DNA of 64,000 nucleotides, from the IMG/VR virus record IMGVR_UViG_3300048058_000019; one strand, 5' to 3'. This DNA comes from a virus. Taxonomy: Duplodnaviria; Heunggongvirae; Uroviricota; Caudoviricetes. The translations under genes were made by a program, and so were the position numbers. The number at the start of each line of letters is the position of its first letter. Position 1 is the first letter of the stretch. Positions 193-35,810 of this stretch are shown here, piece by piece. The notes under the pieces were generated by a model. It was not told the origin of the DNA. It did no database searches and saw only the letters and a list, made by a program, of their open reading frames with translations.

Positions 193-346
193 TAATAAAA
201 TACGTAGAGTTATTTCTCTACAATCCCCCAATATTCAGTGTTGTATCGTTCCAACCACATCGAACTGCTTTGATGTTTCCTATTAAATAGGCAAACAGCG
301 TTCCAGTGAGGCTCCCACATTTCTTCAATAGCAACTATCTTAAAGT

Positions 347-553
347 TCACTTAATCACCTTTAAGAGCTTATGCCATTTGTAGTGGGCGAAGTGTTCTGT
401 GATCCCATCCTCCATTTTAACCTCAATAGAACCATGATCTTCTCTGGGATTCTTGGGGTTATGTTTCCAAACCTTCCGGACGACACCCCGTGTTGGATTA
501 TCCCACTTGCCCATGGGGATGGTCTCAACTTTATCTCTCACTTTGATATCCAT
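347..553 (-). CDS. hypothetical small protein (68 aa)
   Basis: Minus-strand ORF from track, tightly packed against the downstream gene (9 nt gap). Confidence 0.4.
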   Translation of the reverse strand: MDIKVRDKVETIPMGKWDNPTRGVVRKVWKHNPKNPREDHGSIEVKMEDGITEHFAHYKWHKLLKVIK

Positions 554-16168: not shown

Positions 16169-16429
16169 TTAATAATTTGGGGTTTCAATCCACGTACCGT
16201 GAGGAGATCCATACTTCAACCAGAGTTCTCTTGACCAATACCATTCTCCAGGCTTGATTCCCTTCTTCCTACGCACCTCGCTCCAGAGGGGTCGCCATAA
16301 TGACCATTGATTATTGCGACCAATGATGTGGAAATTTACGAATTCGTGATCACCCTCTGATGGTAAGGGGTCCGACAATTTAAGCTTCTTCTTCACAGTT
16401 GGACTGTTTTGTTGAGAACTCTCCACCAC
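16169..16429 (-). CDS. hypothetical protein (86 aa)
   Basis: Minus-strand ORF; its start may lie later, since it overlaps the next ORF by 50 nt. Confidence 0.3.
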   Translation of the reverse strand: MVESSQQNSPTVKKKLKLSDPLPSEGDHEFVNFHIIGRNNQWSLWRPLWSEVRRKKGIKPGEWYWSRELWLKYGSPHGTWIETPNY

Positions 16430-16951: not shown

Positions 16952-17189
16952 ACTTATTCTTCCTCATCTTGCGTTTCGGTAAGAGATTGTGTTTGGCTAG
17001 AATTAGGTCGCTGAGCCGATATTCAGAGTCGACATACTTATCCCATACTTCAACAAAGCTTGCTGCTGCTCGCAAGCCCGCATCCCATGCTTCACGATCT
17101 CGAAGGATTGGATGTTGGTCCTTCTTGGCCTTCTCATCCTTCTGCCATTCGAGAAAAGCAACGGGGACGGTCCAAATGGGTTCAGTCAT
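16875..17189 (-). CDS. hypothetical protein (104 aa)
   Basis: Minus-strand ORF; the low-complexity Arg/Ser C-terminus may be read-through. Confidence 0.3.
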   Translation of the reverse strand: MTEPIWTVPVAFLEWQKDEKAKKDQHPILRDREAWDAGLRAAASFVEVWDKYVDSEYRLSDLILAKHNLLPKRKMRKNKYESPRGRKGSRSRRSRGRGKSNRTH

Positions 17190-17325
17190 AATCTTCTTCG
17201 TGAAGATGCATCCACACTCGTGCCATCAAGAAATTCATCCTCACATCAGGATTATCGCTGATGCGATATGGAATCTCATCTACAAGATTAGAGCGTGACT
17301 TAGGTGCTACGATTTTGAAATTCAT
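17182..17325 (-). CDS. small protein of the N-F-K-I-x-A-P N-terminal-motif family (MNFKIVAPKSRSNL..., 47 aa)
   Basis: Trimmed to the ATG at 17325, so that the protein begins with MNFKIVAP, as do about 10 other small ORFs in the window. Confidence 0.45.
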   Translation of the reverse strand: MNFKIVAPKSRSNLVDEIPYRISDNPDVRMNFLMARVWMHLHEEDYD

Positions 17326-17428
17326 GACTCTCAACTCAAAATCCCCGCCACAACCACCATAGTTGTGACGACGAGGGCAATCACCATCAAGATTCTTGCA
17401 TCCCATGGTCGCTCAGTTTGACACTTCA

Positions 17429-20659: not shown

Positions 20660-21898
20660 TTACAAGCTGATCAGGATCTTATCCCCGAAAGGAGGCTTGG
20701 CGTCCTCGGTGAGAAGCCACACAACCGGCGTCGGTGGAACCTCAGGAGGCCAACGTCCAACCTGCCCGTCAGTGAGAACCACAAGGATGTTGTTGAACAA
20801 GTGGTTTTCCTTGAGATAGGCGAACAGGTGAACAACATTTGTTCCACAACCACCCTTGGCCGGGATCTTTCTCCAGTCGCCCCGGTGATATCTCTTTGCG
20901 GGCATCTGGATCTTAGCGTCCCAAAGCACGAGGGAGATCTTGAAACGGTGGCTTGCAGCTTCCACTTCCGTGAAGAGTTGTTCGAGCATTTTGACGTTGC
21001 TGGCCACCGAACTGGAGACGTCGACCGCGAGGAGGAGCGGCACGGACGCGTGGTTGGAACGTCCAGCAAAGCCGAAGAGGTCAATGCGGCGGTTGCGCCG
21101 AGCGAAGGTCTTACGCTTGCCGCCCAGCTGACGACCGCAGAACTGACGGAACAAATACTTCCAGTTGACCTTCGGATCTTGAAGCTGCTCAATAGCATCT
21201 TTCAGGTGGCCTGGAGCCGAACCAGCTTTCTTGCTGGCCTGCTCAACCATGTCCTTGACGATCTGGCGGGTCTCTTCCTCACCGATTTCCGACTCTTCCC
21301 AGATGTCGTGATTGTCAACCGTCGTGCCCGAAATGACCTTCTGTCCAGGCTTCGGTTTCTTCTTGCCGCTGGCGAGATCACCACCCGGCATGTCGATGAA
21401 GATTTTCTTCTGGTTCTTGTCGAGCCAGTCGTAGACTTCCTCGTAGGTCGAGTTATTCTCGGGCGAGAGATCGCCCTCGGGGAAGTAAAGGGGCGGAGCT
21501 TCCGTCGTCTTGTTTCCGCCTTCATCGAAGACCGGAATCATCGGCAGGTTTTCGATGTTGGGCTTACTCTCGGGGCCATTCACGCACATATCCGCAGCCG
21601 TGTTGGCCATTTCGTGGTCTCGCGCACCATGACGAGTGATGTGCAGGCGAACGATATGCTCAATTTCGTGCTGAATTACCGCCATCAGAGCGTCAATCTC
21701 TCCAATGGCATCAACAAAAGGTCCTGACCATCGACACTCGACCCGGCCTCCGGCAATCATACGGACGCCCATGGTCCCAACCTTGTCGTCGCGCTTCCAC
21801 TCCATGAGGGATGCCATCGTGCCATACCAAACGTGCATGGTCACCAGACGGCATCGCGCCTTCATGATGAGGTCTTCAGCGCTGTCGTACATACCCAT
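20660..21898 (-). CDS. vWA-domain protein with N-terminal HExxH putative metallopeptidase domain (CoxE/DUF2201-like partner of a MoxR ATPase)
   Basis: HEIEHIVRLH (HExxH) sits in the N-terminal half; the C-terminal half has vWA-like features (ILVVLTDGQ). It lies immediately downstream of the AAA+ ATPase. Confidence 0.7.
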   Translation of the reverse strand: MGMYDSAEDLIMKARCRLVTMHVWYGTMASLMEWKRDDKVGTMGVRMIAGGRVECRWSGPFVDAIGEIDALMAVIQHEIEHIVRLHITRHGARDHEMANTAADMCVNGPESKPNIENLPMIPVFDEGGNKTTEAPPLYFPEGDLSPENNSTYEEVYDWLDKNQKKIFIDMPGGDLASGKKKPKPGQKVISGTTVDNHDIWEESEIGEEETRQIVKDMVEQASKKAGSAPGHLKDAIEQLQDPKVNWKYLFRQFCGRQLGGKRKTFARRNRRIDLFGFAGRSNHASVPLLLAVDVSSSVASNVKMLEQLFTEVEAASHRFKISLVLWDAKIQMPAKRYHRGDWRKIPAKGGCGTNVVHLFAYLKENHLFNNILVVLTDGQVGRWPPEVPPTPVVWLLTEDAKPPFGDKILISL

Positions 21899-21900
21899 TA

Positions 21901-22131
21901 CTAACTCTCCTCCACATGTCTGCGTAGTTTACGCTTAACTTGCTTACGCGTTGGTTTCGATCCTATCCAAAGGATCGTCGGGTCTTCATCCTCTAGCGGA
22001 GCTGGAGGTTTAACACCAGGATAGATCCTGCTCAGGTAGCCGAGTTTGGCGTGCTTAACCCTGCCCTTCTCGAGCAGATCGGCAACTTCGGTTCCCAACC
22101 CACAGGATCCTTCGAAGTAAAAAGCGAACAT
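21901..22131 (-). CDS. hypothetical protein (76 aa)
   Basis: Minus-strand ORF. Confidence 0.35.
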   Translation of the reverse strand: MFAFYFEGSCGLGTEVADLLEKGRVKHAKLGYLSRIYPGVKPPAPLEDEDPTILWIGSKPTRKQVKRKLRRHVEES

Positions 22132-22148
22132 CTCTCCTCCAATTGCTC

Positions 22149-22661
22149 TTAGTGACTGGCTCGTTGCAGAGCACGTTTAATCTCCTCAACGGAGATCTCG
22201 TGTGTCTTTTGAGCCAAGATTCGTTCAATGTTGGCAGTGTGATCTTGATCGGGGTCACCACAACTCTGGAGATGCTCAAGGAACTGATCTGTAAATCTGC
22301 GCATCCTCATCTTGATGTTAGCAAGAACCTTTTGAGCGATCTCGTAATTCCCCTCAAGAGCAGTTGCTATTTCCTTGAGATGAATTTCCTCCACGTATTC
22401 GTCGGCAGCACCTTGCGTTAAAATGATGTCGGGATCTCGATGAGCCTCAGGGTTATTCCAAAAGGCGTCCGCCATTTCGCGAACCAGTCGCGAGGAGGCT
22501 GTCTTGTGGTGAATGTTACTCACCACAGTTTCAGCGATGTCGTCAAAATCGTCCAGCATATTTGGTCTCCAGTGTGGTACATTATTTCTGCTCACCGGCA
22601 AGCCGGTGACGGGTAGCTCCGTGCTCTCCTCAGTGCGGAGTCCACAGTATCTACCCGCCAC
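22149..22661 (-). CDS. hypothetical protein (170 aa)
   Basis: Minus-strand ORF located between the AAA+ and vWA genes. Confidence 0.5.
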   Translation of the reverse strand: MAGRYCGLRTEESTELPVTGLPVSRNNVPHWRPNMLDDFDDIAETVVSNIHHKTASSRLVREMADAFWNNPEAHRDPDIILTQGAADEYVEEIHLKEIATALEGNYEIAQKVLANIKMRMRRFTDQFLEHLQSCGDPDQDHTANIERILAQKTHEISVEEIKRALQRASH

Positions 22662-22675
22662 CGGCTCATATTCGT

Positions 22676-24034
22676 TTAGCTCCCGTAAGAGACCTTCGAC
22701 ATGAGCTTCTGCAGCTCGGGGCGAGCGCTGATGGCAGCGATCCAGGAATTGGTCTTATCGGGCTTGTACCGAGCGGCCATCTTGGCGAGATGGACGTTGG
22801 AAAGCACCGCACCACCGAGGTTGACCGTTTCCTTCTCGACCAGAGTGCGGCCGAGCATGACCGCGAGGTCGCGCTCTGCGCGCTTGGCCACCAACTCCAT
22901 GAAGTCCAGCGTGTTGGTGATCAGCTTCTCCCGATCCTTACCCTTCACACCCTTGGTGTCCGCGAAGCGGTCCTTCGCGTGGGAGGCCACGCCCCAGACC
23001 AGACCGACCATCTGGTTCCGGTTGAAGCCCTTGAGCTTCGCGTCGATGGCCTTGAGACCCTTGTCCAGCACGTCACCCGGGGTGACTTCGACGCTGAACC
23101 GCTCGAACGCGTTGGCGAGATCGCGACCCACGATCCCGGCGAGGACTTCGCGGATTGCTTCCTTCGGATAGTTGCGGCGCTCGACCTCTTGAGCCACGCG
23201 GCCTACGAATTCCCAAGAGCGCGGGGACGACATGACAGTGAAACCGAGGTCACCGTCGATCTTGCCCATCAAGTTGTTCTTGTCGTAGGTCACGAACTGC
23301 AGGACCTTGTCGCCGACAGGACCCTTGAGCTTCTGAGTCATGTAATCCGACCAGTCGGCCACATAACCCTCGTCCACCGAGACGACCACGTGGCAGAACC
23401 TGTCGAGGAACGCCGGGTCGTTAAAGGTGTTGACGTTGTAACCGGTCTGGTAGTTTCCAGCGCAGGTCACACTCCAGCCCGAAGGCATGGTGTACCGACC
23501 GAGCTGACGGTCCAGAACCAGCTGGAAGCAGGCCTGAAGCACGTCGTCGTCGGCGCGGTTGAGCTCGTCCAGGAAGAGGATTCCTTCGTGGAGGATGATG
23601 ACGATTCCGTCATCCTTATCCGTCTTGGGCTGGTTCTTGTGACCATTCGGACAAACCGTGGGGATCTCCTTGGTGAGGGCATAACTGCCGTTCTCACCGA
23701 AGGTTCCGTGCCAACGGCCTCGAGGCCCGTTCTTCACAGGCGCGTCGGCGCATTCCAAACAGAGGAACTCTCCGTGCGGGAGATCCTCAGGCGGGCAGTA
23801 AATCGTGAGGCCGTTCTGTCGGTCGGGGAGACCGCGCAGATCGGACGATTCGATCTGACTGGCACGGAAATCCACAAACCCCCAAGGCCGCTTCGTGCCC
23901 GAATGCTTCGGGGCCTCTTGACACAGCTGCCTTACGAGGGAGCTCTTACCCAAGCCTCGGTGGCCCCACATGAACATGGCCACACCGGAATTGCGACAGA
24001 GCCGAGTCGCATGCTTGGTCATCGTAACGTTCAT
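22676..24034 (-). CDS. MoxR/AAA_5-like AAA+ ATPase with a Cys-rich insertion
   Basis: Walker A GHRGLGKSSLV; Walker B ILFLDELNRAD. About 90 aa between them contain CPPEDLPHGEFLCLECADAP...CPNGH. Confidence 0.75.
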   Translation of the reverse strand: MNVTMTKHATRLCRNSGVAMFMWGHRGLGKSSLVRQLCQEAPKHSGTKRPWGFVDFRASQIESSDLRGLPDRQNGLTIYCPPEDLPHGEFLCLECADAPVKNGPRGRWHGTFGENGSYALTKEIPTVCPNGHKNQPKTDKDDGIVIILHEGILFLDELNRADDDVLQACFQLVLDRQLGRYTMPSGWSVTCAGNYQTGYNVNTFNDPAFLDRFCHVVVSVDEGYVADWSDYMTQKLKGPVGDKVLQFVTYDKNNLMGKIDGDLGFTVMSSPRSWEFVGRVAQEVERRNYPKEAIREVLAGIVGRDLANAFERFSVEVTPGDVLDKGLKAIDAKLKGFNRNQMVGLVWGVASHAKDRFADTKGVKGKDREKLITNTLDFMELVAKRAERDLAVMLGRTLVEKETVNLGGAVLSNVHLAKMAARYKPDKTNSWIAAISARPELQKLMSKVSYGS

Positions 24035-26034: not shown

Positions 26035-26275
26035 CTTTCTTCTTCCTTCCGAACAGGTCTTCACGGATTTCTTTGAGTCCCGCCAGCTTATCTCCAAGCT
26101 CTTGAGCTGATTTGAGTCCAGCCGCTACCTTTCGCCACCTTGCTCGCTCGCCCCGGTAGCGCTTAAGAAAAGCAACAGCTCGACTTAGAAGGAGGGTCTC
26201 GGCATTCTCCATGCCGTCTTTGAGGCCGATGAGGCCCTCAATGACCTCGTCTATTTCTTTTTCTTTCACGTTCAT
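26018..26275 (-). CDS. hypothetical small helical protein (85 aa)
   Basis: Minus-strand ORF. Confidence 0.35.
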   Translation of the reverse strand: MNVKEKEIDEVIEGLIGLKDGMENAETLLLSRAVAFLKRYRGERARWRKVAAGLKSAQELGDKLAGLKEIREDLFGRKKKDAESK

Positions 26276-26519
26276 GCTCCTCCATAGCGTCAGCCATTTT
26301 AGGTCCTGTAATTCCTAAGATCTCTAACCCCCAAATGGGCTCCATCTTACGAAACTTGGGGCTTGTCTTCTCAAGAAGAAGACGGTCGAGTTTCGCTTGA
26401 CCGCGACACTCTGCTTCCTTCCAACGATTCCCTAATCTAAGGAAAGGTTGGCGTCCTCGAGCCTCGAAATTCGCAGCATAACTGGGGGCCACGATCTTGA
26501 AATTAGGCTCCTGCATCAT
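26238..26519 (-). CDS. small protein of the N-F-K-I-x-A-P motif family (MMQEPNFKIVAPSYAANFE..., 93 aa)
   Basis: The motif sits at residues 6-12. Confidence 0.45.
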   Translation of the reverse strand: MMQEPNFKIVAPSYAANFEARGRQPFLRLGNRWKEAECRGQAKLDRLLLEKTSPKFRKMEPIWGLEILGITGPKMADAMEEHERERKRNRRGH

Positions 26520-27204
26520 CCAGCTTCTTGAAGATCCGATCTCTCAGATCTCGGGCAACTGCCGCTCGACGGACGTCGTGAGACTCGTCAGCGTCATATT
26601 CTCCATGCTTGTAAAGCCGGTTTAGGTTCCGACCGGAAAACGCCATACGGACTTTGCCCGCTTCCTTCTTGTCCATGATGTGGAAGATACCCTCGATGGC
26701 ACGTCCCGACATCTCAGCAAAATCCATGCGCACTTTCTCGTTCATCTCCCCGGGTTTGAAGACCTCTCCGTAGTGACGGAGAGCTTCACCCAGAACCTCG
26801 GACTCTTCTAGGTTCACGAAGAGGGAGACCAAGGAGTTAACAGCGGGCATTACGGGCTCCGCCCCAGGAATGATGATCTTAGGAGTCGAGGGGACCGCAG
26901 CCGGAGCCGCAGTTGGCACAGGAGCAGGGGCCACAGGCGGCGGCTTGACACCCATCCGCTCGGCCATCTCCTCGAAGGAGAAGATGTTCTTACCAGTTTT
27001 GGTCTGCCACTTCTCGTCGGCAGCCTTCGGGTCTTTCTCGTCGTAGCCCGGTTCATCCTTAGTAGAAGTCCGGATGACAACCTCGCGGCTACAATTACAG
27101 GTAATGTGCCGCTCGATCATCTTCTTTCCATTCTCTTCGATTTCCGCGCAGGGCCAATCGAAGATTCGGTGGTTGATACCACACGTGCAGAAGATCTTCA
27201 TCAC
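26503..27204 (-). CDS. hypothetical protein with N-terminal Cys cluster (233 aa)
   Basis: MMKIFCTCGINHRIFDWPC...CNCSREV at the N-terminus, then a Pro/Ala-rich linker. Confidence 0.5.
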   Translation of the reverse strand: MMKIFCTCGINHRIFDWPCAEIEENGKKMIERHITCNCSREVVIRTSTKDEPGYDEKDPKAADEKWQTKTGKNIFSFEEMAERMGVKPPPVAPAPVPTAAPAAVPSTPKIIIPGAEPVMPAVNSLVSLFVNLEESEVLGEALRHYGEVFKPGEMNEKVRMDFAEMSGRAIEGIFHIMDKKEAGKVRMAFSGRNLNRLYKHGEYDADESHDVRRAAVARDLRDRIFKKLDDAGA

Positions 27205-27713
27205 TCCTCCATATTGAGTCTAATTTGACTCACGTAGGTTAGAACAGCAGAATCCGCCCGACAATGATCCGGAATTTTACTCAGTAAGGTTTCAGTGTTT
27301 GAACGATAACCTTTTGTGAATTTCACGGGCTTAAGCTTGAAATCTCGCGTATTATCACATCGATCAGCGAGTTTAAGTAAGACGCCATCTCGCGATAGCC
27401 GAGCAAAACGCGCGAAGTATTCAGCCTCTTTTTCAGCCTTAGGGAGAGACTTAACCTTAGTCACTCCCATGACCAGCTCAGTCATGTCGCTCCCGAAGTA
27501 GAGTCGGATTGTACCGGAAGTAACATCGGTGTCTTCAATCACATCATGAAGTACACCTGCAGTCGCCAACTTAATATTGCCGGTACGAGCAAAGAGATCA
27601 TCCGCAACCCGTAAAGGGTGGAGGATATAAGGTTCGTCAACGAACTTGCGACGTTGTCCATCGTGGGCCTTGGTCGCAAGGAGGATTGCTCTATTGTAGT
27701 TCTGAAGCCACAT
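27201..27713 (-). CDS. RelA/SpoT-family HD-domain (p)ppGpp hydrolase (small alarmone hydrolase)
   Basis: KAHDGQRRKFVDEPYILHPLRVA and AGVLHDVIEDTDV match the SpoT/Mesh1 HD hydrolase motifs. Confidence 0.8.
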   Translation of the reverse strand: MWLQNYNRAILLATKAHDGQRRKFVDEPYILHPLRVADDLFARTGNIKLATAGVLHDVIEDTDVTSGTIRLYFGSDMTELVMGVTKVKSLPKAEKEAEYFARFARLSRDGVLLKLADRCDNTRDFKLKPVKFTKGYRSNTETLLSKIPDHCRADSAVLTYVSQIRLNMEE

Positions 27714-28239
27714 GTTTTTCTACCTTATTAAGAAGGGCTCGGATTTTCTTATGATCCTCATTGTGATAGGAGATCTTACGCTCCGTTGCCTCTATATTGT
27801 CCTTAATCATCCTAACCAACAATTCTTCGAGCTTCTCGCCCACCTTCTCGTGGTTATGTAAGGGGATAAAGATTTCGAGATGTCCCCTGCCAAACGTTAG
27901 ACCTCCCTTAAGGGCGTTGTGGCGGGCCGCATATATCTGATCTAGGTGACCAATAGTCACACAAATTCTTCGATGATCTTGATCATTGGAGAATAGCTCA
28001 TGTGTCAGAACTCGTGCGCCGATCTTATCGAGCCTGCGCTCACGCCAGACTTTCTGGATATAGTCAGCCACAACCCGTTTTTGTCCTTCCGAGTTGTAAT
28101 GTTTCGTACAGAGTAAGTCTCCCGAAAGCTTCTTCAAGCAACGACTATGATAGTGACCATCAGCACCGCACTTCTCACAGATGGCAAACCGGTTGTTATA
28201 GATTAGACCTTTACATTTATCGCAGAAAGTCTTAGTCAT
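27691..28239 (-). CDS. modular Cys-rich zinc-finger protein, family member D
   Basis: Trimmed to MTKTFCDKCKG..CEKCG..H..C..LC..H. VADYIQKVWRERRL aligns with the ADYAKKMWDDVGF domain of 4524-5153. Confidence 0.55.
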   Translation of the reverse strand: MTKTFCDKCKGLIYNNRFAICEKCGADGHYHSRCLKKLSGDLLCTKHYNSEGQKRVVADYIQKVWRERRLDKIGARVLTHELFSNDQDHRRICVTIGHLDQIYAARHNALKGGLTFGRGHLEIFIPLHNHEKVGEKLEELLVRMIKDNIEATERKISYHNEDHKKIRALLNKVEKHVASELQ

Positions 28240-28486
28240 CGCTCCATCTTCCACTCGCGTGCGGTTCTCCCTTACCATAACCACGGGGATCGAGACGGTT
28301 GATTTCCTTAAATTGGCCCTCATCCATGATCTCGATCTCGCCTGCCGTCTTGTGACCGTAAGCCATCCGTCCTTTTTTCATCGGGACGTCTCCGTCCGCG
28401 ATTACACATGGAACGCAGGTTCTCGCGTTAGGGAGGGCTTCCAGGCGCTCAGCGGAGATTAGCTTACCGCAACGTTCACAACTCAT
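28232..28486 (-). CDS. DksA/TraR-type C4 zinc-finger protein
   Basis: CERCGKLISAERLEALPNARTCVPC is C-x2-C-x17-C-x2-C with the conserved I..R..A.P.A residues of PF01258-type fingers. Confidence 0.6.
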   Translation of the reverse strand: MSCERCGKLISAERLEALPNARTCVPCVIADGDVPMKKGRMAYGHKTAGEIEIMDEGQFKEINRLDPRGYGKGEPHASGRWSDD

Positions 28487-28614
28487 TCATCCTCCTCTAA
28501 TTCTTCATATTCCTCTTCGTCTTCTTCAACTTCTTCGTCGTCGTACCAGCCAAATTGTTCTCGCCAATCATTTTGGAAGAGAGCAATTTTGAGTGCAATT
28601 CTTTTGAAGTTCAC
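28483..28614 (-). CDS. tiny acidic-tailed ORF with GTG start, NFK-motif family (VNFKRIALKIALFQNDWREQFGWYDDEEVEEDEEEYEELEEDE)
   Basis: GTG at 28614; its stop overlaps the ATG of 28232-28486 as ATGA. The N-terminal NFK(R)IA matches the family motif. Confidence 0.25.
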   Translation of the reverse strand: MNFKRIALKIALFQNDWREQFGWYDDEEVEEDEEEYEELEEDE

Positions 28615-28886
28615 GTTCTCTGTCGCTTTCCGTTGAGTGTGTACCACTGACCTTCGCTCCAAGCGCCTAGGATCTCTTCAATGACTGATTTCTTAGCAGA
28701 AAGAGTCACCCGATAAAGACTCTTACCAACTTTATCACATGTTAGGATCTTGAATTCGCCTCTGGCGAGGGCCACGCCTAGGTTAGGATCCTTGAGCATA
28801 TAACGCATCGCTTGTTTGCGTGCGGAGGGCGTGATTGCATCGTCAAGATCCGGCCAACCTCCATGTTGTCTATATGAGAGTCTCAT
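28611..28886 (-). CDS. hypothetical protein (MRLSYRQHGGW..., about 91 aa)
   Basis: Trimmed to the ATG at 28886 that overlaps the stop of the upstream tiny ORF. Confidence 0.4.
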   Translation of the reverse strand: MRLSYRQHGGWPDLDDAITPSARKQAMRYMLKDPNLGVALARGEFKILTCDKVGKSLYRVTLSAKKSVIEEILGAWSEGQWYTLNGKRQRT

Positions 28887-29002
28887 GGACGAATTCCTCC
28901 TGGAGGGGGATTCCAATAACTACTGCATTCATAACAGCAGTTACATTCAGGGTTCTCCTGGCAGAGATCCATATCGCTATGAGCGATGATTGTGAAGTTC
29001 AA
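28883..29002 (-). CDS. tiny Cys-rich ORF with TTG start, NFK/NFT-motif family (LNFTIIAHSDMDLCQENPECNCCYECSSYWNPPPGGIRP)
   Basis: TTG overlaps the upstream stop as TTGA; the N-terminus copies the MNFTIIAP of its upstream neighbour. Confidence 0.2.
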   Translation of the reverse strand: MNFTIIAHSDMDLCQENPECNCCYECSSYWNPPPGGIRP

Positions 29003-29148
29003 AATTCGTCATCCTCATTACACGATCTACAATCACAGATTACATCCGAGATAAAGTAGCCAGAAGGATTACAATCGATGCAATCGCATTGCTTTTCATG
29101 GGGGACTTTATCAAGCGCCTCTTCGGGAGCAATGATTGTGAAGTTCAT
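28999..29148 (-). CDS. tiny Cys-rich ORF, NFK/NFT-motif family (MNFTIIAPEEALDKVPHEKQCDCIDCNPSGYFISDVICDCRSCNEDDEF)
   Basis: 49 aa, so below the track threshold. ATGA overlap with the upstream ORF. Confidence 0.35.
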   Translation of the reverse strand: MNFTIIAPEEALDKVPHEKQCDCIDCNPSGYFISDVICDCRSCNEDDEF

Positions 29149-29312
29149 GATTCTCTAATACAGCCTTCACACTGGCAGCGGACGCTAGAAAGATCACCGC
29201 AGATTTCATAACCCTGCTCAGCTACCCAATGTTCACAGCGACCGCACTCCCATGCGGGAGTGCCCTGCTTCTCTGCCTTGAACATCTCGGACCCACAGTA
29301 CTTACAAAGCAT
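29145..29312 (-). CDS. tiny zinc-finger ORF (MLCKYCGSEMFKAEKQGTPAWECGRCEHWVAEQGYEICGDLSSVRCQCEGCIRES)
   Basis: 55 aa. TAATG junction with 29312-29719 and ATGA junction with 28999-29148. Confidence 0.35.
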   Translation of the reverse strand: MLCKYCGSEMFKAEKQGTPAWECGRCEHWVAEQGYEICGDLSSVRCQCEGCIRES

Positions 29313-29719
29313 TATTCGGCTCCCTTCTTCTCTTTCTTAAGATACTTCGACTTCATGTTCTTCGTGCGCTCAACAATCAGCGCCGCGATTCGATCAATGA
29401 GATCAGGAACAGCTAGAGGAATGACCTCAAATTCCTGATGCCCGTACCCGTACTTCCTTCCCCTCGCCTGGAACTTGAGTTTCTCTCCTTCCACATGGAC
29501 TTCGCTGATAAGAGAACTCATGGGAGAGGGCCACCGGAAAGATAATCTACTCCCTCTATAAGTGACATACCCTGTGCTGACCGCAACCGCAACCTCGTTT
29601 GGATCAATACCAGCCTTCTTAAAGGCTTCTAGGAAGGTCTCACTGAGAATCATCATCCCAGTAACAGAATACCATTTCTTCTGAACGTAGAAGTCACCAA
29701 CATCAACTGAGGATCTCAT
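29312..29719 (-). CDS. hypothetical protein; paralogue of 18828-19223
   Basis: See 18828-19223. Confidence 0.5.
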   Translation of the reverse strand: MRSSVDVGDFYVQKKWYSVTGMMILSETFLEAFKKAGIDPNEVAVAVSTGYVTYRGSRLSFRWPSPMSSLISEVHVEGEKLKFQARGRKYGYGHQEFEVIPLAVPDLIDRIAALIVERTKNMKSKYLKKEKKGAE

Positions 29720-30192
29720 TTAACACCCTTCGTCGCGGCCCACTTCCGTATCAGCTTTTGCGTTTTCTTCCGTTCTCTCTTTGCCTTATCGGTTTCAACT
29801 AGTTCCCGCAACTTTTTGTCATAGACATCTTTCTTCTTGAGACTCTTAACAAGCTTGGTGTCAGTCTCGAACAGCGTTCTTAAAAGACCAAGAAGGTCAG
29901 ATGTCGGTTCAGCAATGTTCATGTAATAAACCCATCCATCTTTATTCGTTGACAGGTCTTGCTTGCGCGAGAAGATGACCTCAACCTCATTTTGAACGAA
30001 CACGTGGATTGCAGGGATAAAGTATCCTCCCCGAATCTGGAGATGAGGTTGGATATAAGGTGTCGAACCGCCGTACAAGGACACCTTAAATCCCTCGTTA
30101 ATGAGCCACACCTTTAGTTGGCCTAGCGTGGCAACTTTCTCTTGATGGGTCATTTCGCAAACTGACGCTTGGCCAGCTCCTCCTTGTACCAC
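29716..30192 (-). CDS. hypothetical protein (158 aa)
   Basis: Minus-strand ORF with a 4-nt overlap with the next gene. Confidence 0.5.
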   Translation of the reverse strand: MVQGGAGQASVCEMTHQEKVATLGQLKVWLINEGFKVSLYGGSTPYIQPHLQIRGGYFIPAIHVFVQNEVEVIFSRKQDLSTNKDGWVYYMNIAEPTSDLLGLLRTLFETDTKLVKSLKKKDVYDKKLRELVETDKAKRERKKTQKLIRKWAATKGVK

Positions 30193-31121
30193 TCAGGAAG
30201 GCCAGCAGTCGCTCCACGCAAGATCTTGGGAAGCGCCCACTTTAGAAGCGCCTCAGCGATGGGCGAGTTGGGACCCTTCGCCTCTTCCTCAGTGAGATCC
30301 TTGTGGACTTCCTTGATAAGCTTGCCGATGTCCTTCGGAGCATTTTCAAGCTCACCACGTTCCTCGAGGTGCATTACTGCCTTGCTCCAGCGAGCAGGGG
30401 TTTGATACGACATGATGAGCTTCTGAAGGATATCACCCTGCTTGGGGTTGGATTCCTTCCACTCGACCCCGTGCTTCTCCTTGAACTCCTCGCTGACGAA
30501 CTTCCCCATCATGGCCTTGCCATCCGAACCAAAACGGTTGTAGTTCTTGACGACAACACCTTCGATCTTCTCTTCGCCTAGGACACTCATGGTCTCGTCC
30601 ACGAGCTTCCGGAAGACGTCGTAGTTATCGATCTTGCCACGGAAGAAACAAGGGACGCACTCGAGGCCGATCCGATCGGCTTCAGCCTTCTTCTCTTCGG
30701 GAGAGAGATACTGCTCGTACGAGGGGCTGATATCGAAGATGATCAGATGGTCTTTGGGGACCCGGCCGTAAGCCCGAGTGTGATGCTTGGGCTTCGACAG
30801 GTATTCTGCCCGGTAGGTCCAGCCCAGCTTGAGATTGGGTTGAAGCTTTAGGATGGTTTCTACCGCCTTGATGAAGAGCTTCTCAGGGGCAATCAGGTTG
30901 ATCTGGGCACCCTTCGAACGGGCACGCAGCTCGGGACCCTCACCAAAATCGAAGACACCAAAGCTGAATTGGGACCCGTCCACTTTCTCTTCGAGGATCA
31001 CTTCCTCCAGGAAAAGCTCTGTGATCGCATGGTGACCCAGAGCGTGGATCTTCGTGTATGAATGATACGACGTTGCGGTTACAGGCTTCTTTGCAACCAG
31101 GGGCTTCTCTTCAGGAACCAT
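30150..31121 (-). CDS. ATP-dependent polynucleotide ligase, RNA-ligase-like (nucleotidyltransferase domain, no OB domain)
   Basis: Motif I EEKVDGSQFSF (KxDG); motif III HLIIFDI; motif IV KIEGVVVKN; motif V MMGKFVSEEFK. Start trimmed to the ATG at 31121 (MVPEEKPLV), which has a GAGGGAAAG RBS. Confidence 0.6.
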   Translation of the reverse strand: MVPEEKPLVAKKPVTATSYHSYTKIHALGHHAITELFLEEVILEEKVDGSQFSFGVFDFGEGPELRARSKGAQINLIAPEKLFIKAVETILKLQPNLKLGWTYRAEYLSKPKHHTRAYGRVPKDHLIIFDISPSYEQYLSPEEKKAEADRIGLECVPCFFRGKIDNYDVFRKLVDETMSVLGEEKIEGVVVKNYNRFGSDGKAMMGKFVSEEFKEKHGVEWKESNPKQGDILQKLIMSYQTPARWSKAVMHLEERGELENAPKDIGKLIKEVHKDLTEEEAKGPNSPIAEALLKWALPKILRGATAGLPEWYKEELAKRQFAK

Positions 31122-31464
31122 TCTTTCCCTCACAATCTTTACAGCAGCACTTGATACATACGCATTCGCTACCACCACATGGAGTAGTGCAATGCTTATG
31201 ACTACAACCACATGTCTCGTAATCGGAGAAGGGAAGTATCGACGCTAACTGCTTCCTTTCTCGATCATAGACAACCTTGAGCATCTGCTTTTCATGCTCA
31301 ACCAGGAAGATGGAAACCCGGTGGGAGTCTTTATGGTAGAATCTCGCATCTCCCACACGGATCTTGTCCACGATACGACACTGGTCCTCCTCTCTGAGGA
31401 CCAGCCCAAATCGCTGGAAGGCACGCCGTTGAGCGTGCAACCGCTGAGATTTATCTTTCTTCAT
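31111..31464 (-). CDS. Cys-rich hypothetical protein (117 aa)
   Basis: C-terminus CGCSHKHCTTPCGGSECVCIKCCCKDCEGK. Confidence 0.45.
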   Translation of the reverse strand: MKKDKSQRLHAQRRAFQRFGLVLREEDQCRIVDKIRVGDARFYHKDSHRVSIFLVEHEKQMLKVVYDRERKQLASILPFSDYETCGCSHKHCTTPCGGSECVCIKCCCKDCEGKNGS

Positions 31465-31465
31465 G

Positions 31466-31561
31466 TTAATCTCCTACCCCGCCGAAGCCGAGACTGAGGT
31501 ACCACCGATAGTAAGTTATGTTACGTCTCCTCGCCGGTGGCGCTATAATCTTGAAATTCAT
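31466..31561 (-). CDS. tiny ORF of the NFK-motif family (MNFKIIAPPARRRNITYYRWYLSLGFGGVGD, 31 aa)
   Basis: TGATG junction with the upstream gene and 2-nt spacing to the downstream ATG; begins MNFKIIAP. Confidence 0.3.
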   Translation of the reverse strand: MNFKIIAPPARRRNITYYRWYLSLGFGGVGD

Positions 31562-31926
31562 CAAGCCCATGCAAACCTGTGGAAGGATTCAATCTCCTTT
31601 GAGCGGACACATTCATCGCAGATTGGTTTAATAGGTCCATCTGTGTCCTGAAAGACTCCAGTTGCTGTGGCAGCGCAGCGAGAGCACTCCCACTCTTCGT
31701 CCTCTTCCTTCTCCTGAGGGATGAAGCGCTCATCAATCTCGCCCATTGTTTTTTGGATCGCTTTGAACCAGAGAGTCTCGTCGTGACCCGAGCATCCAAA
31801 TTCGCTCAAGATCGTCTTGAGATGATCAAACATCTCAAATGCTTTATCGTGGGTCTTGCAACGCTGAATGATGGGGAAAGGCATCCCCTGCTCGGGCTCT
31901 AAGACTTTACAAGCACACGTAGACAT
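31561..31926 (-). CDS. Cys-containing hypothetical protein (121 aa)
   Basis: Preferred over the alternative-frame ORF 31521-31799, which is low complexity. Confidence 0.4.
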   Translation of the reverse strand: MSTCACKVLEPEQGMPFPIIQRCKTHDKAFEMFDHLKTILSEFGCSGHDETLWFKAIQKTMGEIDERFIPQEKEEDEEWECSRCAATATGVFQDTDGPIKPICDECVRSKEIESFHRFAWA

Positions 31927-32176
31927 ATTGCATCCTCCTAATCATGTCAGCGAGATCTTCAAAGAAGTTGGGGTCGGCCATGTTTAATATACGCGGACGA
32001 CCTATCCCCATGACTGTGATCTTCGGTAGCTCATCTAGAATGAGCCTACCATGAGCCGAATTATCGATGAGAGATTCGATATAAAAGACGTCTCCAGCGT
32101 CGTTGATCTTGATCGGGGTCCCGCGATATTCCTCTTTCAGCCATTCAACAAGAGCTGTCTCAAAGTCGAGTTTCAT
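31907..32176 (-). CDS. hypothetical protein, DPxFF-motif family member (89 aa)
   Basis: C-terminus NMADPNFFEDLADMIRRMQYV. Confidence 0.5.
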   Translation of the reverse strand: MKLDFETALVEWLKEEYRGTPIKINDAGDVFYIESLIDNSAHGRLILDELPKITVMGIGRPRILNMADPNFFEDLADMIRRMQYVYVCL

Positions 32177-32376
32177 CGTCTCATCCAGGTTCTACCTGTC
32201 CAAACGACCCTAGACCACGCATTACAGTGGACCACATGAGGAATACCCTCTTTGTTGACGTGTCTAAAAAACTCAAGTGCTTCCGGGAATTTAGACGGAG
32301 GAGTCGTGTGATCTTTATAGAGAAAGACCTTTCCCAACAAATAGCCCGTGTAAGGGACCAAAATCTTGAAGTTCAT
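32173..32376 (-). CDS. small protein of the NFK-motif family (MNFKILVPYTGYLL..., 67 aa)
   Basis: Begins MNFKILVP. Confidence 0.45.
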   Translation of the reverse strand: MNFKILVPYTGYLLGKVFLYKDHTTPPSKFPEALEFFRHVNKEGIPHVVHCNAWSRVVWTGRTWMRR

Positions 32377-32627
32377 TTCTTCCTCTTTCTGCGTCCTTCA
32401 AGGATCTTGATCTGAGCCTCATCGAGAGAGGGGCGGAGGTCCGCAACACGAGCACGAATGTCAATCAACTCGTCCGTCATAGCACGAATCTTATCGAGAA
32501 GACGAAGGTCCCCACAAATCTTGAGGTTCCCATCACAAGTGTAAGCTGTGGTGCAACAAGCGAATGTTCCTACTCGCTCGTCACAGAAATCGCACTTATC
32601 CCCGTTTATCATTCCTAAGACGCGCAT
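32373..32627 (-). CDS. Cys-rich hypothetical protein (84 aa)
   Basis: CDFCDERVGTFACCTTAYTCDGNLKIC. Confidence 0.4.
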   Translation of the reverse strand: MRVLGMINGDKCDFCDERVGTFACCTTAYTCDGNLKICGDLRLLDKIRAMTDELIDIRARVADLRPSLDEAQIKILEGRRKRKK

Positions 32628-32860
32628 TAGGACACGTGAGATACGTGAACGGCTACTTGGACATATTCAGCAGACCATCTAACGCTTCCCTGACTGGCTT
32701 GCTTAGCGTTCTCGGGCTCGAACGCTTCGCTCCAGACCTCAGGTCCATTCTCTCCAGGAATGTTGAACGGCGAGTTAGGGAGCGCCATCAATAAACTGGC
32801 GAGTTCGTGCGTATCTTGAACCCCTCTCAGATTCTGATATTGATCTCTCGAGATTTCCAT
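32627..32860 (-). CDS. hypothetical protein (77 aa)
   Basis: Minus-strand ORF. Confidence 0.35.
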   Translation of the reverse strand: MEISRDQYQNLRGVQDTHELASLLMALPNSPFNIPGENGPEVWSEAFEPENAKQASQGSVRWSAEYVQVAVHVSHVS

Positions 32861-32870
32861 TTGATCCTCC

Positions 32871-33203
32871 TTAGTGATGGGGGTCCCACTTCATCATCTT
32901 ATCAATGTGACGCTTGAGCTTCGCGAACATGTGAGGATCGGTGATACTCACTTCTTTCCTCGCGAAGCACCCTCGAGACCTTCGTGCCAATGGATGAGAG
33001 TAGATGATTTTCATTTGATCTCCCTCACCTTGAAGATTGAAAACCGTATACCAGATGAAAGGATCAAACTTGATATCCTTCGGGATCAGTTTGAGTTGAG
33101 GACCAATCTGACCATCCTCTTCAGCTCGGAGAGTGTAAACATCAATAGCTGGATACCTATCTCGTATCCAATACCTGATTATTTCGATGCCAGTGATAGT
33201 CAT
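32871..33203 (-). CDS. hypothetical protein, DPxFF-like family member (110 aa)
   Basis: C-terminus SITDPHMFAKLKRHIDKMM. Confidence 0.45.
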   Translation of the reverse strand: MTITGIEIIRYWIRDRYPAIDVYTLRAEEDGQIGPQLKLIPKDIKFDPFIWYTVFNLQGEGDQMKIIYSHPLARRSRGCFARKEVSITDPHMFAKLKRHIDKMMKWDPHH

Positions 33204-33331
33204 TTCTTCTCCTTGAACTTCTGGATGATCTCAACCATCAAGCAGATGTAAAGGGTTAAGGCTGTCCCTTCCACACCGAAGGTCAGGAGACCTAATCCGA
33301 TAAGGAATAAAAAGAGAAGGAAATTTCTCAT
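33200..33331 (-). CDS. tiny hydrophobic peptide (MRNFLLFLFLIGLGLLTFGVEGTALTLYICLMVEIIQKFKEKK, 43 aa)
   Basis: ATGA overlaps on both sides; one predicted TM helix. Confidence 0.35.
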   Translation of the reverse strand: MRNFLLFLFLIGLGLLTFGVEGTALTLYICLMVEIIQKFKEKK

Positions 33332-33528
33332 TTTACCTCAGGTAAAACCTCAGGACCCCAATCTAGATCATAGTCTAGATTCCAATGCCAATCGGAATAA
33401 TGACCTTGGGGCCGTTGGCACCGGATAGGCTTATTGTCTGGAGTCAATGCAGACCAACAAGCATTTTCACAAAGAACCTCTTTATAGGCAGCATTTGGGG
33501 CGAAGATCTTAAATTTTTCTGAACTCAT
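33328..33528 (-). CDS. small Cys/Trp-rich protein with an N-proximal FKIFAP motif (MSSEKFKIFAPNAAYKE...)
   Basis: Variant of the NFKIxAP motif at residues 6-11. Confidence 0.4.
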   Translation of the reverse strand: MSSEKFKIFAPNAAYKEVLCENACWSALTPDNKPIRCQRPQGHYSDWHWNLDYDLDWGPEVLPEVK

Positions 33529-33839
33529 TCACCCGCCGCTTCTACCGTAGCAGACATAGAACCTGCACAACGTGGGATCCTTGGGTCTCGCCCGTAAGCG
33601 TGGACCTTATCTCTCTTGAATTCAGCATATTCAAGAGCGCCCGAATATACAATCACCTTTCCGGTCGCATCGACCTCAACTGCCATCCTGAATGCCTTCT
33701 CCTTGGAGTGACCGAAGACCACTCCAAGCATTTCGATCACATACTCGTATGTGTGATCATCATCATTCCACAGGATAACGTTGTAAGGAGGCTGTGTCTT
33801 GACATCCTCCTTGACTTCATCTTTTACTTCTGTCGACAT
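33525..33839 (-). CDS. clpS: ClpS-like N-degron adaptor (copy 1)
   Basis: PPYNVILWNDDDHTYEYVIEMLGVVFGHSKEKAFRMAVEVDATGKVIVYSGALEYAEFKRDKV aligns with the E. coli ClpS core [52 protein letters not shown]. Confidence 0.8.
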   Translation of the reverse strand: MSTEVKDEVKEDVKTQPPYNVILWNDDDHTYEYVIEMLGVVFGHSKEKAFRMAVEVDATGKVIVYSGALEYAEFKRDKVHAYGRDPRIPRCAGSMSATVEAAGE

Positions 33840-34066
33840 TACTTCTTCTCCCGTGTGGTACGTTCGGTGAATTGAGACATCTTATCGAGACTTCCGAGGT
33901 CATCAAATTTTGTGTCAAGTAATTTGACATCATTAATCTCGGCTGCACCAAATTCTCGCAGATAGTCGAGGAAATCTTCCTCACGCTCATCACCGAGAGG
34001 TACGGCATAAGTGATGCAATAAACAAGTGTCTTGCCGAGTTTCTCACAGGCCTTTTTGCGGTCCAT
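33839..34066 (-). CDS. hypothetical protein (75 aa)
   Basis: Minus-strand ORF with 1-nt junctions; preferred over the alternative-frame ORF 33817-34047. Confidence 0.4.
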   Translation of the reverse strand: MDRKKACEKLGKTLVYCITYAVPLGDEREEDFLDYLREFGAAEINDVKLLDTKFDDLGSLDKMSQFTERTTREKK

Positions 34067-34266
34067 CAGAGTCCTTTCATCTCTTCAAGGATGTCTTTCC
34101 AGTCTTTTCCAGTTCGAGTAGCTATATCCTTAATACGGAGGAGACCTTCTTTAAGAGAACAATCATAACAAAGAATATGACTTATTGGATGCAATCGTGG
34201 TTTCGCCTTGCAAGTCAAGCAAGGCACTGCAGCTATCGGCGCAGTCATTTTGAAGTTCCCGAGCAT
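34066..34266 (-). CDS. small Cys-containing protein with an N-proximal NFKMTAP motif (MLGNFKMTAPIAAVPCLTCK...)
   Basis: Motif variant at residues 4-10. Confidence 0.4.
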   Translation of the reverse strand: MLGNFKMTAPIAAVPCLTCKAKPRLHPISHILCYDCSLKEGLLRIKDIATRTGKDWKDILEEMKGL

Positions 34267-34269
34267 CTA

Positions 34270-34446
34270 CCTCACCAATCCCACGTACACGAGATCCCTC
34301 GACTTCGACTTCTTCGATCCATCCACGCTCGTCTCCGTCACGGTGACTTGACGGCCCTTTCGGGTCTTCATCTTCCTCCGGACGCCGTGCTTCGCGTCGG
34401 TCCTGGAGTAGAAACCGTGAACCATCTTACTGTTGCTGCGCCGCAT
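34270..34446 (-). CDS. possible small highly basic protein (MRRSNSKMVHGFYSRTDAKHGVRRKMKTRKGRQV..., 58 aa)
   Basis: Fills the gap on the coding strand. The competing plus-strand ORF 34027-34518 is antisense to everything else nearby. Confidence 0.3.
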
Positions 34447-34717
34447 CGTTTTCCTCCTTGTAAGCTTCCGTATCCAACTGGTTTAAGCGAGCATTATTTC
34501 TCTCTACCCAGAGATTGAATTCTGGTCTTTCTTGAAGGGTAGTGAGAATCTCCATTGTCTTGGGCTCATCAAGCTGCCCTGGCAGAACATAGAGCTTCCA
34601 GATCCTTTTAAAACGTTTGAACCCCTCCAGATCTCTCACCGCATCATGCTCATATGCGGCGAGTATCTTCATCCGATCGATGCCGAGGATCTTGAAGTTG
34701 CTCCTACTCTCCATTCT
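34427..34717 (-). CDS. small protein of the NFK-motif family (MESRSNFKILGIDRMKILAAYEHDAVRDLEGF...)
   Basis: Trimmed to the internal Met. It is a paralogue of 34856-35089 (IDRMRELERFEHDAVKDIAWF). Confidence 0.4.
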   Translation of the reverse strand, partial: RMESRSNFKILGIDRMKILAAYEHDAVRDLEGFKRFKRIWKLYVLPGQLDEPKTMEILTTLQERPEFNLWVERNNARLNQLDTEAYKEENDAAQQQ

Positions 34718-34928
34718 TCTCCGCCTTGAGCTCCGAGTCGGCCCTGCTCCATCCATCAATTTCGGTTCCATCCGCTTTATCGGTGGCCTCTTGTTCGGAG
34801 TCGGCCTCGACCTCGATTGAGTAATAGACGCTATAACTCACAGTCCATTTGGGCTTCACAAGCTCTTCTCTTTCTTCTGATCTTCTCGAGAGAGATCTAC
34901 AACGGTAAATCCATTCCGGCCCCACCAC
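34704..34928 (-). CDS. hypothetical acidic protein (74 aa)
   Basis: Minus-strand ORF. Confidence 0.35.
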   Translation of the reverse strand: MVGPEWIYRCRSLSRRSEEREELVKPKWTVSYSVYYSIEVEADSEQEATDKADGTEIDGWSRADSELKAEKNGE

Positions 34929-35089
34929 GAGCCGTAACGAAGACCGTAAACTTCGTGCATCTTCTTTCCGTCACAATGTGCGTTAAAAAACTTTTTGAGC
35001 CTTTGAAACCAAGCAATATCCTTAACTGCATCGTGTTCAAATCGTTCCAACTCCCTCATTCGATCGATGCCGACTATCTTGAAATTCAT
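34856..35089 (-). CDS. small protein of the NFK-motif family (MNFKIVGIDRMRELERFEHDAV..., 77 aa)
   Basis: Begins MNFKIVGID; paralogue of 34427-34717. Confidence 0.45.
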   Translation of the reverse strand: MNFKIVGIDRMRELERFEHDAVKDIAWFQRLKKFFNAHCDGKKMHEVYGLRYGSWWGRNGFTVVDLSREDQKKEKSL

Positions 35090-35510: not shown

Positions 35511-35810
35511 TTAATCCTCCGGCTCAATAGAGAAGGTCAGAGGGAATTTATTCATTCGGGCTATCGCGTGAGCCTTCTCTACATGGAATTCAGCTCGTTC
35601 GAGAGGTTCCACCACAACCAGGGCTACTTGCTTCGAGTGAGCCTCGAGCATGATCCGCGTAGATTCCGCGAGATCCTTATTGAAGACTTTGGATAGAACC
35701 AGAACTACGAAATCCATCGGAGTCTTCGGATCATCGTGGATGAGTACCCGATACATCTTGATGTATCCGGTACGCGTTTTAGTCTCCTGAATGGTATCCG
35801 TATCAGACAC
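35511..35810 (-). CDS. clpS: ClpS-like N-degron adaptor (copy 2)
   Basis: YRVLIHDDPKTPMDFVVLVLSKVFNKDLAESTRIMLEAHSKQVALVVVEPLERAEFHVEKAHAIAR matches the ClpS core. The two copies are only about 30% identical to each other. Confidence 0.75.
   Translation of the reverse strand: MSDTDTIQETKTRTGYIKMYRVLIHDDPKTPMDFVVLVLSKVFNKDLAESTRIMLEAHSKQVALVVVEPLERAEFHVEKAHAIARMNKFPLTFSIEPED

Follow-up and report, generated by a model that had tools for sequence, protein, structure and literature searches.

Small open reading frames (ORFs) along a 64,000-nucleotide stretch of a tailed-phage genome (Caudoviricetes; IMG/VR record IMGVR_UViG_3300048058_000019), hereafter the window, share a conserved N-terminal peptide, which we call the tag, with the consensus (M)-N-F-[KR]-I-[IVL]-[AG]-P. 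Our analysis confirmed that the tag is a peptide-level signal and highly non-random, and the set that carries it is best described as a fast-diverging array of small proteins of which only the first 7 to 12 residues are held constant. We tentatively regard the tag as a portable N-terminal peptide for docking or sorting, most likely one that acts like the capsid-targeting sequence (CTS) of phage T4, a reading that we hold to be possible rather than probable. The window is identical to approximately positions 18 to 82 kb of the 384,188-bp JGI metagenome contig 3300060479 Ga0589155_0000001 and contains about 168 predicted genes, mostly small and all on the minus strand.

A peptide-level signal at the N terminus of small ORFs

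A six-frame scan of the window with the pattern [NK]F[KT][IMR][IVLTF][AGV] returned 13 matches, every one of them on the minus strand, and 12 of the 13 lie 0 to 5 codons past a start codon; the first bases of the Asn codons in these N-terminal matches are 35086, 34699, 34257, 33516, 32373, 31558, 29145, 28999, 28611, 26504, 17322 and 347 (minus strand). The composition of the proteome predicts 0.10 matches in all predicted proteins and 0.007 in their first 8 residues. The observation of a preliminary description of this DNA, that small ORFs share an N-proximal motif, thus holds with 12 N-terminal matches against about 0.1 by chance. The tetrapeptide NFKI was observed 7 times in the predicted proteome of the window for an expectation of 0.13, and no other 4-mer recurs at the N termini. 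Enrichment over shuffled controls, a check that the same description had suggested, was found as well, with 7 matches of the DNA pattern AAYTTYAARATNNTNGS in the window versus 0.00 in 100 shuffles. A looser scan of the window added one copy at 16336, at residue 21 of a 75-aa ORF, and the census comprises at least 28 tags overall, 15 of which are found in related DNA outside the window.

Over 28 copies, the consensus reads N (27), F (28), K/R (21), I (24), [IVLFT], A/G (24) and P (13). The residue that follows Phe is otherwise T, I, H, Q or N and never D or E. Conservation spans five or six residues past Phe, with none before Asn, and Met at +10 and Trp at +11 recur (8 of 28 each). An in-register codon alignment of 18 copies (12 from the window and 6 from a second contig described below) showed that the first two positions of each of the first four codons carry about 2 bits. 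Codon 5 is NTN, hydrophobic with a high position 2, and codon 6 is G[CG]N, encoding Ala or Gly with a high position 1. Third codon positions hold 0.1 to 1.3 bits over the 6 to 7 codons, which corresponds only to the constraint of two-fold degeneracy, and they do not favour A or T, the Phe codon being TTC in 10 cases and TTT in 2. Upstream of the start codon, the alignment showed no nucleotide conservation. This codon periodicity, together with the lack of conserved upstream DNA, indicates that selection acts on the peptide, as the preliminary description had argued from synonymous variation.

Tagged ORFs of the window and its flank

The tagged ORFs are as follows.

210..350 (-): 46 aa, GTG start, (M)NFKIVAIEEMWEPHW..., W-x-x-W sub-family
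16169..16396 (-): 75 aa, NFHIIGRNNQWSLW at residue 21; a GTA (non-start) codon precedes the Asn
17182..17325 (-): 47 aa, MNFKIVAPKSRS...; a start at the alternative ATG in the same frame at 17406 would put the tag at residue 28
26238..26519 (-): 93 aa, basic, MMQEPNFKIVAPS..., offset +4; its Asn codon shares bases with the stop of the upstream gene
28483..28614 (-): 43 aa, GTG start, (M)NFKRIALK..., very acidic tail
28883..29002 (-): 39 aa, TTG start, Cys-rich, (M)NFTIIAHSDMDLC...
28999..29148 (-): 49 aa, Cys-rich, MNFTIIAPEE...; weakly similar to L069 8170-8292, on another contig (E 3e-4)
31466..31561 (-): 31 aa, MNFKIIAPPARRR...; fills the gap between two genes exactly
32173..32376 (-): 67 aa, MNFKILVPYTGY...
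33328..33528 (-): 66 aa, MSSEKFKIFAPN..., Asn replaced by Lys, offset +3; its ATG overlaps the stop of the clpS gene ClpS-A (ATGA)
34066..34266 (-): 66 aa, Cys-rich, MLGNFKMTAPI..., offset +2
34427..34714 (-): 95 aa, predicted helical, MESRSNFKILGIDRM...; paralogue of 34856-35089
34856..35089 (-): 77 aa, MNFKIVGIDRM...
L086 12492-12635 and 12670-12822: outside the window, about 1 kb past its coordinate 1, MNFIIIAKHAVWSHW... and MNFRIVATIIHWPSW...

The list given in the preliminary description lacked two copies, the one at 350 with its GTG start and the one at 16336, and it had placed at 34717 a start whose ATG is at 34714. The two ORFs of L086 are the 2 additional tags of the 10-kb flank past the left end of the window, and, like the copy at 350, both belong to the W-x-x-W sub-family; the flank past the right end contains no tags. 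Whether 16169..16396 is a member of the same sub-family with an N-terminal extension is uncertain. Tagged ORFs tile without gaps and usually overlap their neighbours by 4 nt (ATGA, GTGA or TTGA), and the independent gene callers of the source databases called 8 of the 10 that are clustered; 31466..31561 has a low coding score and was left uncalled. Every tagged ORF has its start codon within the gene upstream or at that gene's end, an arrangement which suggests that these ORFs are translated by coupling to that gene.

The thirteenth match of the scan is internal (11105, ...TLNFKMLADS...) and lies in a 323-aa SPFH/Band_7 protein (10518-11489). It is the sole match of the relaxed motif inside a large annotated protein and is probably due to chance.

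Bodies behind the tag

An all-against-all BLAST of the bodies, stripped of their tags, recovered only two similar pairs, namely, 34714/35089 (E 2e-8) and 29148 with its copy on another contig. Bodies extend over 12 to 88 residues past the tag, differ in charge and Cys content, and include a helical protein of 95 aa as well as Cys-rich zinc-ribbon-like, poly-acidic-tailed and basic types. The earlier claim that they are unrelated therefore stands for most of them, with the qualification that small sub-families exist, the clearest being NFxI[IV]Axxxx-W-xx-W with about 8 members of 20 to 50 aa. In addition, 29148 and 29002 are adjacent, both start with NFTIIA and are both Cys-rich, and such adjacent pairs resemble ancient tandem duplicates. 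None of the tagged ORFs has a match in Pfam, PHROG or NCBIfam, in agreement with the statement of the preliminary description that no equivalent had been described, and no untagged paralogues of the tagged bodies were found in the DNA compared. An AlphaFold 2 model of 34427-34714, built on a weak two-sequence alignment, shows an all-helical body in which the tag (residues 1 to 12) has a predicted local distance difference test score below 50, so that, with low confidence, the tag of this protein appears to be a nonintegrated N-terminal appendage.

Relatives and distribution of the tag

In IMG/VR, the JGI metagenomes and the GTDB genomes, the strict DNA pattern identified one other tag-rich contig, IMGVR_UViG_3300048496_000010 (31.9 kb), and all other matches to the motif DNA in these collections are single and occur at about the chance rate. 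This contig comes from the same samples that contain a copy of the window and carries 11 tagged ORFs within 6.2 kb, with variants such as NFQVTAP, NFNIIAP, NFIIIAP and NFRIVV. Several other samples hold near-identical copies of the window, all at least 99.99% identical, which makes a within-population ratio of nonsynonymous to synonymous substitution rates (dN/dS) impossible to compute.

A more distant comparison came from homologues of the tagged proteins. For 35089, a word-index search returned only the protein itself, and only itself and its paralogue were found when homologues were sought in 5.8e9 and 1.84e9 proteins. For 34714, both the word-index search and a HMMER profile run against 1.84e9 representatives returned one orthologue, P0002, which is 84% identical and is encoded on a 5.3-kb ENA contig (L103) syntenic with the window at 70 to 82% nucleotide identity. 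P0002 starts with MNFRILGIDRM, so the tag is kept (K to R) and is directly N-terminal. The dN/dS of the 34714/P0002 pair is 0.075 for a dS of 1.1, on par with neighbouring genes, demonstrating that 34427-34714 at least is a real gene under strong purifying selection. L103 carries two tagged ORFs and an orthologue of ClpS-B, the second clpS gene of the window. The nucleotide homology of L103 with the window starts precisely with the Asn codon of the tag (window 34699, L103 4749), and at this edge the window contains three genes that L103 lacks, among them the tagged paralogue 35089. On the side of L103, an extra tagged ORF at 267 borders another indel. These coincidences suggest that tags may sit at the borders where genes are gained and lost.

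Broader searches delimited the distribution further. The capsid protein of the second contig occurs in about 170 IMG/VR contigs, several of which are genomes of 340 to 395 kb. Among the best 80 of these roughly 170 capsid-gene loci (74 to 85% identical), no convincing tag was present within 10 kb of the capsid gene, where only scattered single N-proximal matches to a loosened pattern were seen, and the motif patterns had no match in the named genomes of 340 to 395 kb or in the contig of L149. Loci recovered through the RNA ligase (47 to 58% identity) contained neither tags nor any other recurrent N-terminal 4-mer, a ClpS-A pattern search returned no viral relatives, and the INPHARED collection held no phage similar at the DNA level. 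One syntenic locus, reached through a ligase-like gene on the 371-kb IMGVR_UViG_3300030385_002649, has neither tags nor ClpS. The tag is confined to one narrow lineage and is absent from curated libraries and from the other genomes searched.

The ClpS genes

Two genes near the tagged ORFs encode homologues of the adaptor ClpS.

ClpS-A, 33525..33839 (-): 104 aa, PF02617
ClpS-B, 35511..35810 (-): 99 aa, PF02617

Their matches to PF02617 (E 6e-20 and 2e-22) bear out the identification made in the preliminary description. The two proteins share 28% identity. ClpS-A is 60 to 76% identical to ClpS of Planctomycetota, encoded in metagenome-assembled genomes in ordinary cellular gene contexts, a similarity that points to a recent capture of a host gene and to a planctomycete host; from this sequence relationship, the host of the phage is probably a planctomycete. 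Compared with the E. coli protein, the binding pocket of ClpS-A keeps N34, D35 and D36 and carries T38H, M40Y and H66D, whereas that of ClpS-B keeps T38, P39, M40 and H66 and carries N34D and D36P, position 34 being Asn in the L103 orthologue. Neither pocket is thus fully canonical. No Clp ATPase or peptidase is encoded in the 82 kb of the 384-kb contig that were examined.

A T4-type head module on the second tag-rich contig

IMGVR_UViG_3300048496_000010 encodes a complete T4-type head module, consisting of a Gp20 portal (PF07230, E 5e-71), an S77 prohead protease (PF03420, E 3e-19), a scaffold-like protein and a Gp23 capsid protein (PF07068, E 7e-81), and its 11 tags lie 3 to 9 kb downstream of this module. 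The capsid protein itself has I-L-E|D where T4 gp23 is cut. The scaffold is 35 to 39% identical among the relatives that share the capsid protein, and 65% identical in one of them. The sequence CATAAATA, with one mismatch to the T4 late-promoter consensus, precedes the scaffold gene by about 80 nt (L002, around 6843).

Discussion

A conserved handle on tandem, diversifying small proteins is, judging by analogy, the signature of a trafficking or processing handle, and the arrangement described here resembles in kind a known device, the conserved N-terminal targeting peptide of diverse phage miniproteins, for which the T4 CTS is the sole well-established phage precedent. In T4, internal proteins that are otherwise unrelated enter the prohead core by way of propeptides of 10 to 19 residues, which gp21 then removes (PMC9026906, PMC3012670). 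As with the CTS of IPI, IPII, IPIII and Alt, a short conserved N-terminal peptide is found here on unrelated, fast-evolving small proteins encoded in variable regions (PMC9026906, PMC3012670), and the lineage possesses the T4-type portal, S77 protease, scaffold and Gp23. Our current working model, inferred from these features, is that the tag, a peptide of about 7 to 12 residues on fast-diversifying small phage proteins, would attach to a single shared partner, probably by forming an extended strand that presents Phe, Ile and Ala along the same side and terminates in Pro, while the variable bodies would carry the individual activities of what are most likely host-directed effectors. The array would expand by tandem duplication, with genes gained and lost at tag boundaries. 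The likeliest partner would be the prohead core, of the T4 type, in this phage lineage; the tag would then act like a CTS and take a variety of small proteins into the head, to be injected together with the DNA. The restriction to one lineage fits a fast-evolving partner, and the divergence of the scaffold would explain why the tag is lineage specific.

Several observations weigh against this CTS-like role. The consensus MNF[KR]I[IV]AP does not align with MKTYQEFIAE of T4, and the [LI]-x-E site of the gp21 prohead protease follows the tag within 25 residues in few of the 28 copies and at no fixed position. Since the tag lacks these two defining features of the T4 family, we do not assign it to that family; the packaging tag that the preliminary description had offered as an alternative nevertheless gains context from the T4-type head module on a contig with 11 tags. 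The set also differs from that of T4 in its size (at least 28 copies versus 3 or 4), in its smaller proteins (20 to 96 aa) and in the variable offset of the tag. On the contig with the head module, a strong intrinsic terminator hairpin follows the Gp23 capsid gene (L002, about 4380 to 4460) and places the downstream tags outside the capsid transcription unit, and a comparison of GC content and tetranucleotides left it undecided whether this contig and the window belong to the same genome. In the window, the tag cluster sits among small early-type genes, and the T4-like late promoter TATAAATA has no match; sigma-70-like promoters match there only at the level of shuffled sequence. Strong (5-nt) Shine-Dalgarno sequences precede none of the 12 tagged starts, one of which (a 432-aa gene at 8874) is a probable false positive, versus 51 of 155 other genes (Fisher p 0.019), and such weak ribosome-binding signals, which T4 internal proteins do not share, fit low-abundance proteins better than bulk internal ones. 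Finally, neither docking nor packaging explains the proximity of the two ClpS genes to the cluster, which has a chance of about 0.03 within the window by a post hoc estimate.

This proximity is instead the starting point for a Clp-linked instability tag, through which host Clp proteases would destroy the small proteins at a given time, an explanation that we consider unlikely. The strict form, advanced in the preliminary description, posits that cleavage after Asn exposes a Phe-Lys-Ile N-degron that the phage ClpS hands over to ClpAP, and we find it very doubtful, as we do its elaboration in which one endoprotease cuts some 28 effectors and a phage ClpS, perhaps specific for Phe, gives them a synchronised lifetime. 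In a looser form, the uncleaved tag would be read by an adaptor or by the N-domain of a Clp ATPase, in the manner of N-terminal ClpX and ClpA signals. Apart from the position of the PF02617 genes, which flank or overlap the cluster, the Clp-linked role is favoured by the orthologue of ClpS-B, which stays 1 to 3 kb from two tags in the diverged L103, by the part of the canonical pocket that each ClpS retains, and by the weak ribosome-binding sites, which would suit short-lived regulatory proteins. Jumbo phages are known to encode ClpS, which is presumed to feed the host ClpAP (PMC7824862). A pro-form that requires cleavage would also parallel Dps, a substrate of the N-degron pathway. Wang and colleagues are said to have found in 2008 that ClpS prefers a basic and not an acidic residue after the N-terminal one, and the prevalence of Lys and Arg after Phe, with no acidic residue, agrees with this preference. 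Canonical ClpS, however, takes F, L, W and Y with roughly equal preference, one base change suffices to turn F into L or Y, and synonymous sites are saturated (dS about 1), so a generic N-degron should have drifted, yet Phe was found in 28 of 28 copies with no L, Y or W. In addition, the Phe of the tag is not N-terminal as encoded, being preceded by (M)N or by up to five or more residues; Met-Asn is not a substrate of methionine aminopeptidase and would be kept, and no processing enzyme or endoprotease is evident. Conservation restricted to positions P1 to P6' is odd for an endoprotease site and exceeds what ClpS needs to read, ClpS-A is a near-copy of a host-type ClpS and no specialised adaptor, and the absence of a Clp ATPase or peptidase from the 82 kb examined adds to these points. 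The co-occurrence of tag and ClpS, seen in the window and in L103, breaks down in the 11-tag cluster of L147, which has no ClpS within its 21.5 kb. With an invariant Phe followed by Lys or Arg in three quarters of the copies and a cluster devoid of ClpS, the pro-N-degron mechanism is left unsupported.

The same sequence evidence that argues for a docking peptide would serve equally if the short linear motif docked on another common partner, either a host hub (a chaperone, the clamp, RNA polymerase or the ribosome) or a phage chaperone or regulator, and served neither packaging nor degradation, which strikes us as rather unlikely. Alternating hydrophobic residues that end in Pro would be typical of strand-addition motifs, and the early-type context and weak expression signals suit host-takeover miniproteins; on the other hand, no partner can be named, the convergence of about 28 proteins on one host site is unexplained, and, to our knowledge, the tag is unlike bacterial docking motifs, for example QL[SD]LF, which binds the clamp, or the tail of SSB. 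That the tag belongs to an ordinary family of fast-diverging paralogues, tandem duplicates in which an N-terminal strand is the sole structural constraint, for instance for oligomerisation, without any targeting, is quite doubtful in our view. The pairs 34714/35089 and 29148/29002, the NFxIxAxxxxWxxW sub-family and the presence of a second multicopy family in the same genomes speak for it, but bodies that are helical, Cys-rich, poly-acidic or basic show no detectable similarity, the offset of the tag ranges from 0 to +5 and possibly +20, and the tag lies outside the confident fold in the single model obtained. A single homologous protein family is not supported, as neither the BLAST of the bodies nor the profile search of 1.84e9 proteins revealed full-length similarity. 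A conserved N terminus on hypervariable C termini in tandem precursors is also the pattern of ribosomally synthesized and post-translationally modified peptides (RiPPs), whose leader is read by an enzyme that modifies hypervariable, often Cys-rich cores; about half a dozen bodies here are Cys-rich, and oxygenases of the PhyH/2-oxoglutarate type are encoded near tags in L147 and L103. We nonetheless judge a RiPP-like leader improbable, because a scan of the larger neighbours against Pfam and PHROGs returned no recognition element, cyclase, radical S-adenosylmethionine enzyme or leader peptidase, many bodies are helical or charged stretches of 60 to 90 residues without Cys, and a leader of 7 residues would be unusually short. 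The likeness to RiPP leaders, to encapsulin cargo-loading peptides and to polymorphic toxins, which also join a constant short peptide to diversifying bodies in tandem arrays, is conceptual only, as no RiPP enzymes, encapsulin shell or secretion systems were found here. A signal in the nucleic acid, with the peptide as a by-product, is the least credible of these explanations and highly improbable. Starts located in or at the end of the upstream gene without a strong Shine-Dalgarno sequence, the AT-rich families of the first four codons and the coincidence of indel edges with the tag would fit a translational operator, a downstream enhancer of reinitiation or a recombination micro-homology. 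Against these stand free third positions, two-fold sites that prefer C or G, the amino acid signature of codons 5 and 6, offset copies that keep the motif and not its distance from the start, and flanks that lack conservation; on codon periodicity, the RNA-operator, downstream-box and recombination-site variants are all unlikely.

A further candidate, the prepilin signal of type IV pilins (G|F-T-L-I-E), is abundant in Planctomycetota, bears a superficial likeness to NFTIIA and NFKIIA, and would expose Phe upon cleavage. It was rejected since the tag has Asn (27 of 28) and not Gly at -1, has no Glu at +5 and is followed by polar residues and not by a hydrophobic helix.

If the tag is an address label, as in the CTS-like role that we favour, it would mark by sequence alone a co-trafficked repertoire of miniproteins in a 384-kb uncultivated phage, and the tagged proteins would be candidate injected or host-takeover effectors, for a probable host group, the planctomycetes, in which almost no phage biology exists. 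The tag would then be a new portable handle of 7 to 10 residues, comparable to the T4 CTS used for packaging and delivery. Were it a Clp-linked degron, it would represent the first virus to tag a protein family of its own for the bacterial N-degron pathway, which would also explain the presence of ClpS in many jumbo phages. Under either reading, the strictness of Asn-Phe and the restriction to one lineage offer a sharply testable pair of peptide and partner.

Gene context and other small-protein families

The genes of the window are typical of very large phages by Pfam- and PHROG-type annotation. In addition to the two ClpS homologues, they include an RNA ligase and an enzyme of the CCA-adding/poly(A) polymerase type, an HD_4 hydrolase and DNA-ligase-like proteins. 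At 20660-24034, 2 to 4 kb from the tag cluster, a MoxR-type AAA ATPase (452 aa) is paired with a DUF2201 putative metallopeptidase/VWA protein (412 aa), a pair that is a conceivable candidate for a tag-processing enzyme.

L002 belongs to the AT-richer contig. Its tags frequently use the codons AAT TTT AAA ATT, a perfect 12-nt palindrome, and NFKI consequently also appears in the translation of the opposite strand (816 and 977 on the plus strand, 827 and 988 on the minus strand). This is a curiosity and no second set of genes. The related huge phage IMGVR_UViG_3300030385_002649 mentioned above contains, at L226 19163-20041, tandem ORFs of about 50 aa with the motif C-x-C...W...C-W-x-S-Y-[QR]-I, which form another miniprotein family unrelated to the NFKI tag.

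The second multicopy family, DPxFFxKL, consists of proteins of 90 to 125 aa with a C-terminal D-P-x-[FML]-F-x-[KDE]-L. It is common to the window and to IMGVR_UViG_3300048496_000010, with copies at the following positions.

Window (-): 12113, 12874, 31975, 32939, 40897 and 44692
Elsewhere: L147, 14309 and 17854; L069, several copies

In the window and in the contig with the head module alike, genes of this family are interspersed with the tagged ORFs.

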